Shown one piece after another: positions 1,772 through 37,042 of a stretch of DNA of 40,464 nucleotides (positions are counted from its first letter, which is position 1; every line of letters starts with the position of its first letter). The DNA is taken from IMG/VR virus record IMGVR_UViG_3300028413_000003, positions 1 to 40,464 of that record. One strand, given 5' to 3'. The notes under the pieces are model-generated. The model worked only from the letters and a program-made list of their open reading frames with translations, ran no database searches and had not been told where the DNA came from. This stretch comes from a virus. Lineage: Duplodnaviria; Heunggongvirae; Uroviricota; Caudoviricetes. The position numbers and the translations under genes are program-made.

Positions 1772-2196
1772 TGTTTGAAAAAGATTACGTTGACCGTCTT
1801 CGTGAATGGTCAGCTTTTAGAAGTACGCTGGAGACATCGGCGTATCCTATTCAGGACGCCGTTGACTTCTACAATACTGCACCGCTGGTCGGCATATCTT
1901 GTGATCCGTATGCCGACAAGTTATGGCCAAACGCATGGGAACTGGTTTACGAAAATGTATACTGCGAGTTTTCCATTATTCTGGGAATATGCTACACTTT
2001 GCAGTTAACTAATCGCTTTTCGGAATCAGTTTTTGAGATATATATCTGTGCAGATAGAGCAAAGTCGGAGATAAAATATCTACTGTATGTTGACGACATG
2101 GTAATTGGTTACCATGCAGATTGTGCAGTAGACAGACAACAAATACCTGTGCATATCACAGTTGAAAAACAATTTACTCCACAAAAACTACAATAA
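1771..2196 (+). CDS. Hypothetical phage protein
   Basis: 141-aa ORF translationally coupled (TAATG) to the upstream gene. Confidence 0.6.
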   Translation: MFEKDYVDRLREWSAFRSTLETSAYPIQDAVDFYNTAPLVGISCDPYADKLWPNAWELVYENVYCEFSIILGICYTLQLTNRFSESVFEIYICADRAKSEIKYLLYVDDMVIGYHADCAVDRQQIPVHITVEKQFTPQKLQ

Positions 2197-2242
2197 ATAC
2201 CTAGCTGTTTTACAGTTACCGTACACATTTAAAGGAAAAAGA

Positions 2243-4306
2243 ATGATTCAAGTCACTAAGAGGAGTGGTTCGTTGGAGCCACTGGACATCGAAAAGTTGC
2301 ACAAAGTTGCATTTTACGCATGCGAAGGCATAACAGGAGTTAGTCCAAGCGAAGTTGAAATTAAAAGCAAGCTGGAGTTTTTCAATGGCATCAAAAGCAA
2401 AGAAATACAAGAAACATTGATCAAAGCAGCAGCAGATCTGATCACAGAAGAAACGCCAAACTATCAATATGTTGGAGGAAGACTCATCAACTACGGGTTG
2501 CGAAAAGAAGTATACGGCGGGTTTGATCCTTTTCATATTAAGAAATTGGTGGACTTGAACACCGCCCGCGGCTACTATGATCCAGAATTAAAAGATACTT
2601 ACACCAACGACGAATGGGATAAAATAGACAGTTTTATCAAACACGACCGTGACGAACAGTTAACTTATGTCGCAATGGAGCAGCTTAGAGGCAAGTACTT
2701 GGTGCAGAACAGAGTCACTGGAGAAATCTTTGAAACCCCACAAATGTGTTATGCATTGATTGCTGCTACCTTGTTCTCGTCGTATCCAAAAGAAACTCGA
2801 TTAACGTGGATTAAAGAATACTACGACGCAATCAGCCTCCACGACATCAGTCTTCCTACGCCAGTTATGGCAGGTGTGCGCACACCACAACGTCAATTCA
2901 GTAGTTGTGTGCTTATTGAAACAGATGACAGCCTTGACAGCATCAGCGCTACTTCTGCGTCGATTGTCAAGTATGTGAGTCAAAAAGCAGGCATCGGCAT
3001 TGGCGCAGGGAACATCCGCGCCATTAACTCGCCAATACGCAAAGGCGATGCATATCACACTGGTATCATTCCATTCTACAAGCATTTCCAGTCAGCAGTT
3101 AAAAGTTGTTGTCTAACTCCGGATACAATTGTTGAAATAATTAACGAAGACGGGCTAGAAACAAAAAAAATCCGCATTGCAGATCTTACTACTGGAATGA
3201 AAATTAAATCCTACGAAGACGGCAAGATTGTATACCGAAAAGTTATTAACAAATGGGATACGCTGGTAACAGAAGATCAGCAGGTTAGGCTGGAATTTAC
3301 AAACGGAACAGTGATAAATTGTAGTATAAATCATCCAATTATGATTCTAGACAACAATGTCGTAACACAAAAGTATCCTCAGGAACTTACAGAATACAAC
3401 AATATTATTTCAGAAAATGGCACTGTATATCTATATTCGATTACAGTCGGTCAACAAAATCCAACAGGATACGTTGACATTACAGTGGAAGACACCAATA
3501 CGTTTTTTGCAAGTTCGTTGATGTCTGACTCAATGGTGTTAACTCACAACAGTCAAGGTGGTGTACGCGGCGGCGCCGCTACTATCTATTATCCAATATG
3601 GCATCTAGAAGCAGAAGAATTGCTGGTGTTGAAAAACAACAAAGGAACTGAAGAAAACCGTATCCGTCACATGGACTACGGAGTACAGTTCAACAAGCTG
3701 ATGTACGAAAGATTAATCACAGGCGGCAACATAACACTATTCTCACCCAGCGACGTACCCGGGTTGTATGAAGCATTTTTTGCAGACCAAGACAAGTTCC
3801 GCGAACTATATGAAAAAGCAGAACGCACTACAAAACTACGCAAGAAAACTGTTAAAGCAAGCGAACTATTCAGTAAGTTTATGGAAGAGCGCAAGTCCAC
3901 AGGTAGAATCTATCTGCAGAATGTTGACAATGCAAACGACCATGGAAGTTTTATTCCGGAGTTTGCTCCTATCCGCCAGAGTAACTTATGTCTAACAGGC
4001 GACACTAAGATTGAAGTAATATTCAATAATGAAAAATTAATTATTAATCTCGACGAAATCGGAACGTTAATGGTTCAGGACGAAGATCTGTTAGTTAAAT
4101 CTTACAATATACTTGATAATAAAACAGAGTATAAAAAGGTTGAAGCATTTGCAAAGACCAACCCGGATGCAGAAGTTATTAGTATCTTTGACGAAGATTC
4201 CGGAAAGACTATAGAATGCACACCTGAGCATAAAATTTATACATTGAACCGAGGGTATGTAGAAGCGCAAGAATTAACGGAAACTGACAGACTTTTAATA
4301 TCGTAA
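2243..4306 (+). CDS. nrdA: Class Ia RNR alpha subunit, fragment a (ATP cone, first redox Cys, cis intein, split-intein N part)
   Basis: MIQVTKRSG ATP cone, TPQRQFSSCVL, SQGGVRGGAA, IRQSNL; start moved to ATG 2243 after AAGGA. Confidence 0.95.
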   Translation: MIQVTKRSGSLEPLDIEKLHKVAFYACEGITGVSPSEVEIKSKLEFFNGIKSKEIQETLIKAAADLITEETPNYQYVGGRLINYGLRKEVYGGFDPFHIKKLVDLNTARGYYDPELKDTYTNDEWDKIDSFIKHDRDEQLTYVAMEQLRGKYLVQNRVTGEIFETPQMCYALIAATLFSSYPKETRLTWIKEYYDAISLHDISLPTPVMAGVRTPQRQFSSCVLIETDDSLDSISATSASIVKYVSQKAGIGIGAGNIRAINSPIRKGDAYHTGIIPFYKHFQSAVKSCCLTPDTIVEIINEDGLETKKIRIADLTTGMKIKSYEDGKIVYRKVINKWDTLVTEDQQVRLEFTNGTVINCSINHPIMILDNNVVTQKYPQELTEYNNIISENGTVYLYSITVGQQNPTGYVDITVEDTNTFFASSLMSDSMVLTHNSQGGVRGGAATIYYPIWHLEAEELLVLKNNKGTEENRIRHMDYGVQFNKLMYERLITGGNITLFSPSDVPGLYEAFFADQDKFRELYEKAERTTKLRKKTVKASELFSKFMEERKSTGRIYLQNVDNANDHGSFIPEFAPIRQSNLCLTGDTKIEVIFNNEKLIINLDEIGTLMVQDEDLLVKSYNILDNKTEYKKVEAFAKTNPDAEVISIFDEDSGKTIECTPEHKIYTLNRGYVEAQELTETDRLLIS
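3110..3550 (+). mobile_element. Contiguous mini-intein (147 aa, no endonuclease) in nrdA
   Basis: KSC|CLTPD...VLTHN|SQGG; removal restores the conserved KSCSQGG. Confidence 0.9.
3989..4303 (+). mobile_element. Split intein 1, N part (105 aa)
   Basis: QSNL|CLTGDTKI...CTPEHKIYTLNRGYVEA..L..TD.LLIS-stop; block A and block B (TxxH) present, no block G. Confidence 0.9.
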
Positions 4307-4370: not shown

Positions 4371-4670
4371 ATGCTAAAAATTACAAGACAAAATAAAAGA
4401 GAAGCAGTGTACGATATCACAGTGTTGGGCAATGAAAATTTCTTTGCAAACGGAATACTAGTACACAATTGTGCCGAAATTACTTTACCCACCAAGCCGC
4501 TGAAAGATCTCAATGACGGCGCTCACCGACGTAAAATAAGAATTCCCAAAAACAAATATAATGAATATTTAGAATATAAAAAGTCAGTAGATGGCATTTT
4601 ACGATTAGACAAAGAGAAATTTAATGGCAAAAAAGTACATAAGGTAGCAAGGAATAACAATGGAAAATAA
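4371..4670 (+). CDS. nrdA: NrdA fragment b: split intein 1 C part (33 aa), CAEITLPTKPLKDLND with the catalytic Cys/Glu, and a basic tail
   Basis: VYDITV..NENFFANGILVHN|CAEI; AAGGA upstream. Confidence 0.9.
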   Translation: MLKITRQNKREAVYDITVLGNENFFANGILVHNCAEITLPTKPLKDLNDGAHRRKIRIPKNKYNEYLEYKKSVDGILRLDKEKFNGKKVHKVARNNNGK

Positions 4671-5613
4671 TTGGTTATATGAAGTAGTAGAAAACGAAAA
4701 CAATATTCGAGAAGATGAAGAATACATATATGTAGACGAAATGGTAGAAGACTATGACGGTGCTGCTATCAGCTTGTGTACGCTCTCAGCAATTAATTGG
4801 GGCAATATTAAGACTCCTGCTGATTTTGAAAGAGTTTGTCGCCTTGCAGTACGTGGACTGGACGCACTACTAAGCTATCAACATTATCCAATTCTAGCTG
4901 CACAACTATCAACCGACAAGCGTCGACCACTTGGAGTTGGTATTATCAACTTTGCATATTGGCTTGCTAAAAACAATCTCAATTACCAAGACATTGACAG
5001 CGACGGACTTGCATTAATTGACGAATGGGCAGAAGCCTGGAGTTTCTATCTCATCAAAGCCAGCGCAGACCTAGCAACAGAATTTGGCGCGCCTACCGGA
5101 AACATGGAAACTAAGTACGGACACGGTATTACCCCTAACCAGACATACAAGAAAGATTTGGATCAACTAATTCCACATGTTGAACGTATGGACTGGCAAG
5201 GACTGAGAACGCAGCTTAAAGACACGGGCATAAGAAACTCTACACTAATGGCCCTTATGCCCGCCGAATGTCAAAGCTTGGCAAATGAAATGAGGCTAAA
5301 AGATGGAACAGTTGTAACGCTCGCCGAAGTTATTCAAGATTACGGAAAAATTGATATTAACACTGTTCACGAAAAATTCATGATAGGTCAGAGATTTCCA
5401 TTCCTTAAACCAGTTGAATTGTCAGATAGTATAGCATATGAATGTTATTATAATGGCCCTCAATCTGTTACAGAAATTGAATTAGAAGACGGATCAGTAT
5501 ATAAATTTACTAATAATCACAAACTTCTTGTATTACGAAATAACATAAAAGAATGGATTGAAGTTAAAGATTTATTAGAAGATGACGATATTGTTAGCGT
5601 TAATGATAAATGA
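4660..5613 (+). CDS. nrdA: NrdA fragment c: acidic tail, catalytic core (SLCTLSAINWG, RPLGVG, RNSTLMALMPAE) and split intein 2 N part (5269-5610)
   Basis: RNR core motifs followed by CQSLANE...FTNNHKLLV...DLLEDDDIV-stop; AAGGA at 4649-4653. Confidence 0.9.
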   Translation: MENNWLYEVVENENNIREDEEYIYVDEMVEDYDGAAISLCTLSAINWGNIKTPADFERVCRLAVRGLDALLSYQHYPILAAQLSTDKRRPLGVGIINFAYWLAKNNLNYQDIDSDGLALIDEWAEAWSFYLIKASADLATEFGAPTGNMETKYGHGITPNQTYKKDLDQLIPHVERMDWQGLRTQLKDTGIRNSTLMALMPAECQSLANEMRLKDGTVVTLAEVIQDYGKIDINTVHEKFMIGQRFPFLKPVELSDSIAYECYYNGPQSVTEIELEDGSVYKFTNNHKLLVLRNNIKEWIEVKDLLEDDDIVSVNDK

Positions 5614-12595: not shown

Positions 12596-12626
12596 TTGAC
12601 ACTTCGCACGTTATAGTGTATAAATA
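12596..12626 (+). promoter_or_regulatory. tmRNA promoter: sigma70 type overlapping a TATAAATA late-type motif
   Basis: TTGACA-N17-TATAAA(TA). Confidence 0.7.
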
Positions 12627-12630
12627 TATA

Positions 12631-12965
12631 CATGCAGCAGAGAGTAATCGGTTGTTGCATTATTGATGATTGTAATAAATGAAACGGACCTGGGGGCGGT
12701 ACCCAGATCGTCCACCAAAAGTTTAGACGGGTGATTGACATCTTCAAGGTAGTGCTTGTAAACAACTAAATGATGAACGTTACGGGCGATAAATAGGATC
12801 GACGTGCAGGAAAAACAATTATTAGGATACCCGGATTTAAGCTCGGTTAATGCGATCAAACTACTAAATGCAACCGATAATGCAAACACTGTGGAAATGG
12901 CCCTAGCGGCTTAATTCACTGGCGCCCGGGGAGAGCGTAGCAACAGAATCTCCTCACTTGCAGCC
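12631..12965 (+). ncRNA. ssrA: Two-piece (circularly permuted) tmRNA; tag (A)ATDNANTVEMALAA
   Basis: Acceptor piece with T-arm (loop GGCGGTA) and ATCGTCC-A-CCA ending 12717; coding piece starts GGGCGAT at 12784 (7-bp stem with G3:U70); AGGATCGAC; resume codon GCA 12870, stop 12912-12914. Outer ends approximate. Confidence 0.93.
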
Positions 12966-13016
12966 TAAATTGGGCTACTAGGGTTGACAACTTACCTAGT
13001 AATAGAAAAGTTGCTC

Positions 13017-32854: not shown

Positions 32855-32935
32855 GGACTACGTAGCTCAGATTGGAAGAGCGCCTATGCTTTGTCGCGTG
32901 GGAGGTCGTTGGTTCAAGTCCATCCTAGTCCAACA
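32855..32935 (+). tRNA. Aberrant tRNA: expanded anticodon arm, ACA 3' end, identity unclear
   Basis: Normal D- and T-arms; arm CCTATG-CTTTGTCG-CGTGGG. Confidence 0.5.
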
Positions 32936-33148: not shown

Positions 33149-33252
33149 GGAGAGGTAGCTCAGAGACGAAGGAGTTCTGCAGAACGAATTTGTTGAGGTA
33201 GAGCACGGGCAAGAGCCTGGTGTCAGTGGTTCGATTCCATTTCTCTCCACCA
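33149..33252 (+). tRNA. Aberrant tRNA with a ~30-nt D-loop insertion and a 4-nt anticodon loop
   Basis: Acceptor GGAGAGG/TCTCTCC-A-CCA, canonical T-arm, arm CGGGC-AAGA-GCCTG. Confidence 0.65.
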
Positions 33253-35008: not shown

Positions 35009-35215
35009 ATGAACCTTTACTTTGTGCCAGGAAAGCCCCTGCCTTTTATTCTTAGCGTAGTTGAAAAATCAAAGCCGACTTTCGATATGCACGGAGATAT
35101 TTTGCAAAATGGCGGCGAAGATATTGGTGTATTTGTTCGTACAACACCGTCTGGCAAGGGCATTACAGTTCGCCGCAAGATGTCTGATGTAACGCCGCAT
35201 ATAAATAACACTTAG
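35009..35215 (+). CDS. Hypothetical protein
   Basis: AAGGA RBS. Confidence 0.5.
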   Translation: MNLYFVPGKPLPFILSVVEKSKPTFDMHGDILQNGGEDIGVFVRTTPSGKGITVRRKMSDVTPHINNT

Positions 35216-35235: not shown

Positions 35236-35418
35236 AACTATTAGGAAGTTGGCTTCGAGGCAGCCATCTTATAATGAGTGGAACGAAGTACCCTAGACGC
35301 GAGAGAAACCTTGTCGGGCTAGCAATAGTGGCAAGGCTAGAGCGCCAAGGGAAAAATATGGATAGTAGCCTGCGTTATAGACCTGGTTTTCCTTTGGCGT
35401 AACAGCACACTATTAGTT
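35236..35418 (+). ncRNA. ncRNA mimicking 23S rRNA H42-H44 (GTPase-associated centre) with a 117-nt insert
   Basis: AGGAAGTTGGCTTCGAGGCAGCCATCTTATAATGAGT...GCGTAACAGCACACTA; closing stem AACTATTAG/CTATTAGTT; TATAAATA at 35200-35207. Confidence 0.75.
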
Positions 35419-35485
35419 ATAATAAATACGTTGCACATATAAACTTTTGTGTTATAGTTGCAGTAAGAAGTGGTAAAAATAAACA

Positions 35486-37042
35486 ATGACCAAGAAATTT
35501 GATGATGTTGAATGGGACAAACAGCCCAGTGGCTATATCGAGCATAGTAAAAACAACTGCGACAAGATGCAAGAATTACTCAACGAAACTGGTCCGGGCT
35601 TTTGTTTGGCAAAATGGACACAAGTTACTATGCACTTGGGATCAGGGTTAACACACAGTTGTCACCATCCCACTGCACATAAAATTCCGTTGAACGAACT
35701 CGAAGTCAATCCTAGTGCATTGCACAACACAGAGCATAAAAAGACAGCCCGCAAGCAAATGCTCAACGGCAAAAGACCATCAGAATGTGACTTCTGTTGG
35801 CGCATCGAGGACAACACCAATGAGACCAGCGATCGCACGTTAAAAAGTTTGGATCCGTACAGTGTGCATAACTTTGATGAAATTGCTGCACTAAAGGGCG
35901 ACGAGAATGTATTTCCAAAATATATGGAAATTAGTTTCAGTAATGTATGCAATTTTAAATGTGCATATTGTGGGCCAAGCTTCAGCAGCAAATGGGTAGA
36001 TGAAATAACAGAACACGGTGCCTATTTATTCCCGGGCGTACAGTACAACGGCAATCCAGCAGAGCAAATTAAAAATCGAGAAGACAATCCATACACTGAT
36101 GCATTCTGGAAATGGTTGCCCGAAGCACTGCCGCATCTGCACACATTGCGTGTCACAGGCGGAGAACCGTTGATGAGCAAACACACTGTCAAACTAATGG
36201 AATACATGCTGGAACATCCAAATCCCAACATGGAGTTTGCCATCAACAGCAACGGTTGCCCGCCCGACAAGTTGTGGAAACAGTTTACCAAGTTGTCAAA
36301 TCAATTGGTTGATGAAAAATGTGTCAAGCGAGTTACGTTATTCCTCAGTGCCGAAAGTGTCGAGGGTCAGGCCGAATACAGCCGAGACGGTATGAATTGG
36401 AACATGCTCAAAGAAAATTTAACATACTTTCTTGGGAACACAACCGATACTCGCGTTACATTTATGGCAGCGTTTAACTTGTTCAGTCTCCCAACCTTCC
36501 TAGACTTTTTAGAATATGTGCTGTCATTGAAGAAGACGTACAACAAACACCACATATTTCAGCAATTAGACCAAAGTGGAGTCAACTTAGACAACACAGT
36601 AAACCTCGGGTTGACAAAATACAAAACATCCGGGTATACCAACACGCATCGTTCATACAATCGGATTGGCATTGATATTCCTTATGTTAGACACCCAGAG
36701 TTTTTGGATGTGGCGTTGTCAACCAAGGAACTGGTTGCTGAATTCTTGCTGCCTTCTGTGAATTTTATGTACGCAAATGCTGCCGACGAGTGGAACGGTA
36801 ATACAGGGTTTTTAAGCAACGAATCGCTTAAATTAAAAAGAATCTTATTGGATGTAATGACTGCATGTGACCTTCATCCTACAGATATCAAAACTAAAAA
36901 AATTACCCACGGAAGAAGTTCGTTCTACCAGTTTGTAAATGAATACGACCGCAGACGCGGCAAGGATTTCCTCAATACATTTCCAGAAATGACAAACTTT
37001 TATGCAACCTGCAAAGCAGCGTATGAAGAATTAAATCCGTAA
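35486..37042 (+). CDS. Radical SAM protein (with an N-terminal twitch/SPASM-like Cys cluster)
   Basis: CNFKCAYC, VTGGEP, C.FCW..E. Confidence 0.9.
   Translation: MTKKFDDVEWDKQPSGYIEHSKNNCDKMQELLNETGPGFCLAKWTQVTMHLGSGLTHSCHHPTAHKIPLNELEVNPSALHNTEHKKTARKQMLNGKRPSECDFCWRIEDNTNETSDRTLKSLDPYSVHNFDEIAALKGDENVFPKYMEISFSNVCNFKCAYCGPSFSSKWVDEITEHGAYLFPGVQYNGNPAEQIKNREDNPYTDAFWKWLPEALPHLHTLRVTGGEPLMSKHTVKLMEYMLEHPNPNMEFAINSNGCPPDKLWKQFTKLSNQLVDEKCVKRVTLFLSAESVEGQAEYSRDGMNWNMLKENLTYFLGNTTDTRVTFMAAFNLFSLPTFLDFLEYVLSLKKTYNKHHIFQQLDQSGVNLDNTVNLGLTKYKTSGYTNTHRSYNRIGIDIPYVRHPEFLDVALSTKELVAEFLLPSVNFMYANAADEWNGNTGFLSNESLKLKRILLDVMTACDLHPTDIKTKKITHGRSSFYQFVNEYDRRRGKDFLNTFPEMTNFYATCKAAYEELNP

Follow-up and report, generated by a model that had tools for sequence, protein, structure and literature searches.

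The window considered here (the whole 40,464-nt stretch of DNA analysed) belongs to a jumbo phage and covers a nucleotide-metabolism and tRNA region, in which the genes for ribonucleotide reductase, thymidine kinase and a radical-SAM protein, as well as 12 tRNAs and a permuted tmRNA, all lie on the + strand. Among the tRNA genes, a non-coding RNA gene of about 180 nt occupies positions 35236-35418 (+ strand), within the gap between an ORF at 35009-35215 and the radical-SAM ORF at 35486-37042.

Some of the surrounding genes show unusual features of their own. Specifically, the large subunit of ribonucleotide reductase is found in two ORFs (2162-4306 and 4660-5613), separated by about 350 nt and matching positions 57-347 and 503-671 of PHROG 84; this split could be due to an intron, to an intein or homing-endonuclease remnant, or to a frameshift. 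The permuted tmRNA (12599-13005) is a two-piece molecule of the alphaproteobacterial type, with the tag peptide ATDNANTVEMALAA. In addition, at 32855-32932 ARAGORN reports a tRNA whose anticodon has four bases (ttgt), and at 33149-33249 Rfam gives a tRNA-like match of 101 nt (35.8 bits) not listed by ARAGORN; the two may be unusual or intron-bearing tRNAs.

The GTPase-associated centre (GAC) of bacterial 23S rRNA comprises the end of H42, H43 and H44 (E. coli 1051-1108), that is, the 58-nt domain bound by uL11 and thiostrepton; few RNA domains are as highly conserved or have been studied as thoroughly. An earlier note on this DNA had claimed that the element copies this domain in two separate halves. 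By comparing the window with the E. coli K-12 rrlH gene, we found both sequences exactly where the note had placed them. The segment 35242-35279 corresponds to 23S 1053-1090 (29/38 identical) and is the top match of the whole window on both strands, the runner-up reaching 22; the segment 35397-35412 corresponds to 23S 1091-1106 (13/16 identical). Joined together, the two halves are identical to E. coli 1053-1106 at 42/54 positions, precisely the figure estimated in the earlier note.

Eight of the 12 differences from E. coli are accounted for by four double changes, each of which leaves the pair intact: C-G to U-A at 1053/1106, U-A to A-U at 1058/1080, U.A to A.U at 1082/1086 and A-U to U-A at 1090/1101. 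Two pair-keeping changes had been claimed, and both are real, but the actual total is four. The remaining four differences are A1067C, A1070G, A1089G and U1097C, so that the equivalent of A1067 is indeed a C (C35256). Helix 44 is divided between U1090 (35279) and G1091 (35397) by a 113-nt insert followed by a UUUG linker, and the whole element is closed by a stem, 35236-35244/35410-35418, whose nine positions give eight pairs and one U.U mismatch (35241/35413), matching the 8/9-bp stem of the earlier note. Table 1 reports the parts of the element.

Table 1. Parts of the GAC-like RNA element in the window (E. coli 23S numbering in brackets or after the equals sign)
Feature	Position	Strand	Remarks
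Closing stem, 5' strand, standing in for H42 (E. coli 1047-1055)	35236..35244	+	Pairs with 35410-35418
G1056 equivalent, unpaired junction base facing A1103 (35409)	35245	+	Among 94 unique cores, G in 58 and A in 35; A1103 faces it in every case
H43 mimic (1057-1081)	35246..35270	+	Stems 35246-35248/35268-35270 and 35251-35253/35263-35265; loop 35254-35262
H43-mimic bases C35256=1067, G35259=1070, G35260=G1071, C35261=C1072		+	G1071 and C1072 are tertiary-contact bases
Junction mini-hairpin (1082-1086)	35271..35275	+	Closed by A35271.U35275; A35273 and A35274 are the stacked adenines A1084 and A1085
H44, 5' strand GAGU (1087-1090)	35276..35279	+	G35276-C35408, U35279-A35407; invariant in family
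113-nt insert dividing H44	35280..35392	+	Closing helix GGAA/UUCC, 35280-35283 with 35389-35392
Insert subgroup motifs: CGAAGUACC (35284-35292), GGGAAAAAU (35349-35357), hairpin (35309-35336)		+	
Alternative-pairing segment in insert	35343..35355	+	13 bp with 35387-35399; MFE fold
UUUG linker from insert to H44 hairpin	35393..35396	+	Signature of the family, not seen in rRNA
H44 hairpin and 3' strand (1091-1103)	35397..35409	+	G35397-C35406, C35398-G35405; loop GUAACA
H44 bases A35401=A1095, A35407=A1101 (U in rRNA), then C35408, A35409		+	
Closing stem, 3' strand (1104-1112)	35410..35418	+	Same basis as the 5' strand

The bacterial LSU model of Rfam matches 35242-35295 (model positions 1094-1147) below its gathering score, with 18.5 bits and an E-value of 9e-4 that refers to the 351 nt searched; in Rfam 15, no family other than LSU rRNA matches the element at or near the gathering score. 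A continuous H44 and the flanking parts of 23S rRNA (H41, H45 and beyond) are absent, only about 54 nt matching the LSU model. No other rRNA-like sequence was found elsewhere in the window and the element is flanked by phage ORFs, which agrees with the earlier statement that this is not an rRNA operon.

The window copy belongs to a large family. A covariance model built from 19 other members, leaving the window copy out, scores it at 90.9 bits over its full length (E 8.8e-25); the model has no other hit in the window, nor in the rest of the 251-kb phage record, which is estimated to be 71% complete. The split architecture recurs on over 200 distinct viral contigs, and cultured phages that infect many different hosts carry it as well. 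Specifically, the 3' motif TTTGGCGTARYAGCACAC occurs at no fewer than 118 IMG/VR loci, 107 of its 121 viral occurrences have the 5' half 73-397 nt upstream, and a variant 3' motif with U1092-A1099 adds 108 further loci. When the 5' half alone was used for sampling, all of the unique hits (95/95) continued into an insert and then a phage-type 3' half, the uninterrupted rRNA type being found in 0/95. In cellular genomes (596 Gb), the 69 hits of the 3' motif are at chance level, and only 36 of them, mostly on MAG contigs of many phyla, have both halves.

The same halves were recovered by blastn in unannotated DNA of unrelated cultured phages. The carriers include Aeromonas 4_4572, Serratia BF, Cronobacter GAP32, Pectobacterium CBB, Acinetobacter ME3 and Ralstonia RSP15, together with the Erwinia pEa_SNUABM phages and Kaldavass, Xanthomonas XaC1/XbC2/XacN1, Pseudomonas pf16/Milchi/Astolliot and a Vibrio jumbo phage. 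The site is unannotated in every cultured-phage record inspected, and for this reason the family merits an Rfam entry. Searches of the full-text literature, outside most subscription journals, yielded no description of a phage GAC, L11-site or rRNA mimic, which is not proof of absence. We could not find this phage RNA family described, nor a corresponding Rfam 15 family, and we define it here.

Members share a set of signatures, all of them present in the window copy. The 5' half (35244-35279) resembles 23S 1055-1090 and carries GUUGGCUUAGAAGCAGCC and UAA(A/G/U)GAGU; the 3' half (35393-35410) reads UUUGGCGUAACAGCACAC, in line with the family pattern UUU(G/A)-GCGUAAYAGC-ACAC with A1101; a helix-closed insert lies between 1090 and 1091; and a closing stem extends outside 1055/1104. 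In the 5'-half-only sample, the linker is U in 94/95, U in 94/95 and U in 89/95 copies at its first three positions, followed by G (75) or A (20), and the A1101 opposite U1090, a signature absent from rRNA, is found in 94/95. A fixed signature of this kind (A1101, UUU(G/A) linker, helical insert) in a very large family rules out a recent capture from host rRNA. A functionless relic of host rRNA, an assembly chimera or a chance resemblance, each of which has only the resemblance itself in its favour, is likewise refuted: hundreds of independent contigs carry family signatures that rRNA lacks, compensatory and tertiary covariation is seen (below), the score against a model that excludes the window copy corresponds to an E-value of about 1e-24, and the flanks are phage genes. 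The probability left to these explanations is close to nil.

Secondary structure was assessed on the homologues. RNAalifold, run unguided, finds the closing stem, the two stems of H43 and the helix that closes the insert. Among 94 unique cores, the positions 1057-1081 (A-U 84, C-G 10), 1058-1080 (U-A, G-C, A-U and C-G all seen) and 1054-1105 are paired in 94/94, while 1082-1086 appears as U-A in 50, C-G in 29 and A-U in 13, the window copy being one of the latter. The first three pairs closing the insert are formed in 94/94, 93/94 and 87/94 cores, with many pair types. Across the family, the closing-stem pairs include all four Watson-Crick types, and 7/8 of them are changed on both sides. One pairing proposed by RNAalifold, between the linker G and C1102, was rejected, this G being A in 20/95 copies; since the last linker base varies in this way while C1102 is fixed, C1102 pairs with G1087, just as it does in rRNA, and not with the linker.

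On an alignment of 99 members made with the model, 90.4% of the cells are paired, compared to 67.5% in shuffles, and the covariation score is 0.571 against 0.149, a value reached by 0/500 shuffles; sliding the partners lowers it to 0.05-0.14. Changes on both sides affect 19/24 pairs, compared to about 15 in shuffles. The selection on structure suggested by the earlier note is therefore strongly supported by covariation in the homologues, and it reaches a tertiary base triple.

In rRNA, the H44 pair C1092-G1099 is contacted by C1072 from the loop of H43, and the pair G1091-C1100 by G1071; a mini-hairpin is closed by U1082-A1086, and its two adenines engage in A-minor contacts (PMC2952862). Among 201 unique phage copies, position 1072 is C in 132/132 copies with C1092-G1099 and U in 67/69 copies with U1092-A1099. 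At least four clusters of related inserts hold both states of the triple (C/C-G and U/U-A), which are also spread across the 113 unrelated singleton inserts; read from these insert clusters, the switch between C and U happened several times. In the 94 unique cores, U1060, G1071, A1088 and G1089 are invariant or nearly so, and A1084/A1085 are kept in 94/94. The window copy has U1060, G1071, the C1072 triple, A1084, A1085, A1088, G1089 and the mini-hairpin. We consider the covariation of the triple, together with the invariant core bases, as the strongest evidence that the RNA would take the three-dimensional fold of the uL11-binding domain. All together, the family, the fold and the covariation bear out the claim of a non-coding phage RNA built on H42-H44 of the GAC, and the locus almost certainly encodes a real structured RNA with this fold.

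The element overlaps a 42-aa ORF (35274-35402), which was rejected as a coding sequence. The inserts range from 37 to 365 nt, their lengths showing no frame bias (residues modulo 3 of 29/34/31), and the ATG of the window ORF is kept in only 13/94 members; on these grounds the element is non-coding.

Sequence comparison of the inserts yielded no motif common to all, and 113/144 insert clusters are singletons. Some motifs recur nonetheless: CACCCC..GGUAAGG is present in the inserts of 24/105 members, and the insert of the window copy shares CGAAG(U/C)ACC, GGGAAAAU and the hairpin at 35309-35336 with L065, L035, L113, L120 and L027, across which the hairpin shows compensatory changes. These recurrences, along with the presence of an insert in every member found, including 95/95 of the 5'-half-only sample, would fit a scaffold function, in which the GAC-like domain is a very stable, uL11-protected fold that presents an active variable insert. 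Such a role appears improbable to us, as the inserts differ widely in length, hold no universal motif and are mostly unique, and it is the GAC core that is under the strongest selection, which extends to bases irrelevant to mere stability. As a separate observation, 11/94 unique cores (about 12%) carry a second insertion, a hairpin of 20-57 nt located after A1077 in the 3' strand of H43 (for example in the 5' halves of L043, L010, L115, L067 and L113), which marks a second permissive site in the fold.

In the MFE fold of the window copy, a 13-bp helix (35343-35355/35387-35399) would sequester the linker and G1091-G1093. The family (GAC) fold is 24.5 kcal/mol worse than the MFE in this copy and 9-19 kcal/mol worse in other members; nearest-neighbour energies thus disfavour the GAC fold in all members, which is what one expects when tertiary contacts and ions hold a fold together. 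The alternative helix is not conserved and was rejected as a family feature. Being private to the window copy and in competition with H44, it may represent a conformational switch or may be coincidental, and on the basis of this energy model the window copy might fold differently or switch.

As to how the RNA is made, the motif TATAAATA, a T4-type late promoter sequence, is present upstream of the element at 35200-35207, as the earlier note had observed. It occurs five times in the window, compared to 2.5 expected, and 13/100 shuffles reach five; given this chance-level frequency it was rejected as evidence of a promoter, and the late expression that the note had proposed is unsupported. Another occurrence lies at the 5' end of the tmRNA (12619-12626). 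No intrinsic terminator was found on the + strand after the element. A tRNA gene lies within 1 kb at 66/109 family loci, and at all 66 it shares the strand of the element. By analogy with tRNAs, the RNA is probably excised from a longer transcript.

The neighbouring protein genes do not point to a dedicated partner. Comparison of 222 loci yielded no protein family that goes along with the RNA: an HNH homing endonuclease, the most frequent neighbour, is present at 25/222, and next come TerD, RNase H, a CCA-adding enzyme and DUF2828/DUF7788. The DUF2828/DUF7788 proteins recur near family members at 6 loci. In the window, the 518-aa radical-SAM ORF starts 68 nt downstream of the element, and a sigma-70-like match (35394-35423) overlaps the 3' end of the element. 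This arrangement, by analogy with the leaders of ribosomal-protein operons that imitate rRNA, would be compatible with a cis-acting leader controlling the radical-SAM gene. We regard this as very improbable, since the downstream genes vary between phages and are often tRNAs, radical-SAM homologues lack the RNA at 12 loci, and no ribosomal-protein gene is nearby. Synteny with the radical-SAM gene was rejected on the same 12 loci.

The window phage also encodes a 128-aa protein with a domain resembling the C-terminal part of ribosomal L7/L12 (G000:C1:74149-74535, that is, L124:1300-1686), which matches Pfam PF00542 with 37 bits at profile positions 10-40 and is devoid of the L12 N-terminal, uL10-binding part. 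Such a domain is found in only 5/50 RNA-bearing records (2/22 of the near-complete ones), and on these raw counts the bL12-like protein was rejected as a partner of the family. No homologues of uL11, uL10 or RelA/SpoT were found in the phage record, which is about 71% complete.

The loop bases that contact factors and thiopeptides are less constrained than the core fold. In the 94 cores, 1067 is A in 80, G in 11, C in 2 (the window copy among them) and U in 1; 1068 is G in 74 and A in 20; 1070 is A in 76 and G in 18. Position 1096 is A in 70 copies and G in 23. In the 5'-half-only sample, G1093 and A1098 are kept in 95/95 copies, U1094 in 94-95/95 and A1095 in 88/95. According to the Rfam consensus, A1067, G1068, A1070, A1095 and A1096 are highly conserved in bacterial rRNA; in the phage copies these positions are looser. 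Furthermore, the H42-like stem shows no conserved sequence past its first two pairs and behaves as a generic helix. Judging from A1067 mutants, the C at this position is expected to give the window copy weak thiostrepton binding.

The C-terminal domain of uL11 binds the folded GAC domain. The strict conservation of the fold, combined with looser factor and drug loops and a generic H42 stem, indicates uL11 first among the possible ligands; similarly, the relaxed positions 1067, 1068, 1070 and 1095-1097 and the generic H42-like stem favour uL11, or another ligand that recognises the fold, over binding of GTPases or uL10. Starting from these features, we propose the following mechanism. The ends of the element RNA would join to rebuild the 58-nt uL11-binding domain (the end of H42, H43 and H44), tertiary fold included, with the variable helical insert leaving H44 between 1090 and 1091. 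The RNA, presumably made together with the neighbouring tRNAs, would work with a host component, most likely the host uL11. Acting as a decoy of the ribosomal stalk base, it could draw uL11, or any factor that recognises the uL11-RNA surface, away from ribosomes, and this could, for example, blunt the uL11-dependent activation of RelA; a different pay-off might come from offering the RNA as a substitute target for an attack directed at the GAC.

A free-standing uL11 decoy is the favoured candidate, which we put forward tentatively, just short of calling it probable. Several points weigh against it. Nearest-neighbour folding disfavours the GAC fold, most of all in the window copy with its private 13-bp helix. 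A1067 and A1095 are still about 85-93% conserved, above the need of uL11 C-domain binding alone, and a simple uL11 sponge would not account for an insert in every member. Moreover, the stoichiometric titration of an abundant ribosomal protein by a phage RNA is doubtful. It is also conceivable, though we hold it still more tentatively, that the replica, made by phages of many bacterial phyla, joins the host uL11 in a small off-ribosome 'stalk-base' particle that reprogrammes a uL11- or GAC-dependent host process; the candidate processes would be signalling in the stringent response, the recruitment of factors, or a defence by which the GAC is read or attacked. With respect to the decoy or sensor proposed in the earlier note, the structured GAC mimic stands, and its list of ligands (uL11/uL10, GTPases, RelA, toxins) keeps the rank of a proposal.

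The residual conservation of A1067 and A1095 could be read in another way, namely as a trap or platform: a translation GTPase, RelA or a release factor would dock on the RNA and uL11 in the way it docks on the stalk base of the ribosome, and the L12-like protein of the window phage would suit such an arrangement. We give this reading little credit. A copy of the sarcin-ricin loop (AGUACGAGAGGACC, H95) was sought with up to two mismatches and found in 0/105 inserts, nor is there one in the window, and LSU hits outside model positions 1084-1153 were absent from 20 loci, so that no other rRNA-like module is associated with the element. In addition, the L12-like domain is restricted to a few records, no uL10, uL11 or RelA homologue was found in the record, estimated to be 71% complete, and the window copy is without A1067.

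The substitute-target pay-off deserves consideration as an explanation in its own right: the free RNA might soak up an effector of the host or of a competitor, or a thiopeptide, by which the H43/H44 surface is modified, cleaved or bound, and so spare the ribosomes during infection, in parallel with phage tRNAs that replace or shield host tRNAs hit by defence nucleases. Tre23 ADP-ribosylates H44 at bases 1095-1098, which makes the GAC RNA a proven toxin target (PMC8661411). The well-kept H44 loop (G1093, U1094 and A1098 in 94-95/95 copies, A1095 in 88/95), the location of the RNA in islands shared with other RNAs of translation, such as tRNAs, tmRNA and Y-RNA-like genes, and its spread over phages of very different hosts are all consistent with this possibility. 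We nevertheless deem it unlikely, because Tre23 is an interbacterial weapon, our literature searches yielded no anti-phage system aimed at the GAC, positions 1067, 1096 and 1097 vary (the window copy having C1067), and a decoy must compete with tens of thousands of ribosomes. A smaller share of probability goes to mechanisms outside those discussed here.

By comparing the phage RNA with the 23S GAC itself, it appears that all the helices are kept at 42/54 identity to E. coli, together with the 1082-1086 mini-hairpin and its two adenines, G1071/C1072 with their H44 partners, U1060 and A1088, and that the triple covaries. Unlike the rRNA domain, the phage RNA is a free-standing gene and not a part of a 23S gene; it has a closed generic stem in place of H42, an H44 split by an insert that is followed by the UUU(G/A) linker, and A in place of U at 1101, while 1067, 1068, 1070, 1095 and 1096 vary more than the Rfam bacterial consensus suggests.

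Leaders of ribosomal-protein operons imitate rRNA sites as well, as in the L10 leader and the L1 site in the L11 operon. The phage RNA resembles them in being an extra-ribosomal RNA that copies a protein-binding site of rRNA, to which the same ribosomal protein is expected to bind. However, those leaders are cis-regulatory, located upstream of ribosomal-protein genes, and loose mimics, whereas the phage RNA is near-exact, has a full tertiary core and occurs in varied contexts, the downstream gene in the window being radical-SAM.

If confirmed, these RNAs would represent a new class of viral RNA, namely a trans-acting mimic of an rRNA domain. With a free-standing, virus-encoded copy of the GAC, kept by selection down to a tertiary triple, hundreds of phages would possess a novel kind of device for host take-over or counter-defence, and the phage copies would amount to a natural experiment on the capabilities of the isolated domain. 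The hypothesis is directly testable, because cultured carriers exist (GAP32, CBB, BF, ME3, 4_4572, pf16, RSP15 and XacN1).

Among RNAs supplied by phages, tRNA sets, tmRNA and Y-RNA-like RNAs share the genomic islands of the element, and the tRNA genes its strand; these translation RNAs, like RNA decoys such as pseudo-ToxI (PMC3475682), illustrate how a virus supplies or imitates a host RNA, but none of them imitates an rRNA domain. With regard to such neighbours, two YrlA-like (Y-RNA-like) matches below the gathering score were observed on the minus strand beside the GAC-mimic RNA of a 376-kb viral contig (L079:1253-1479).
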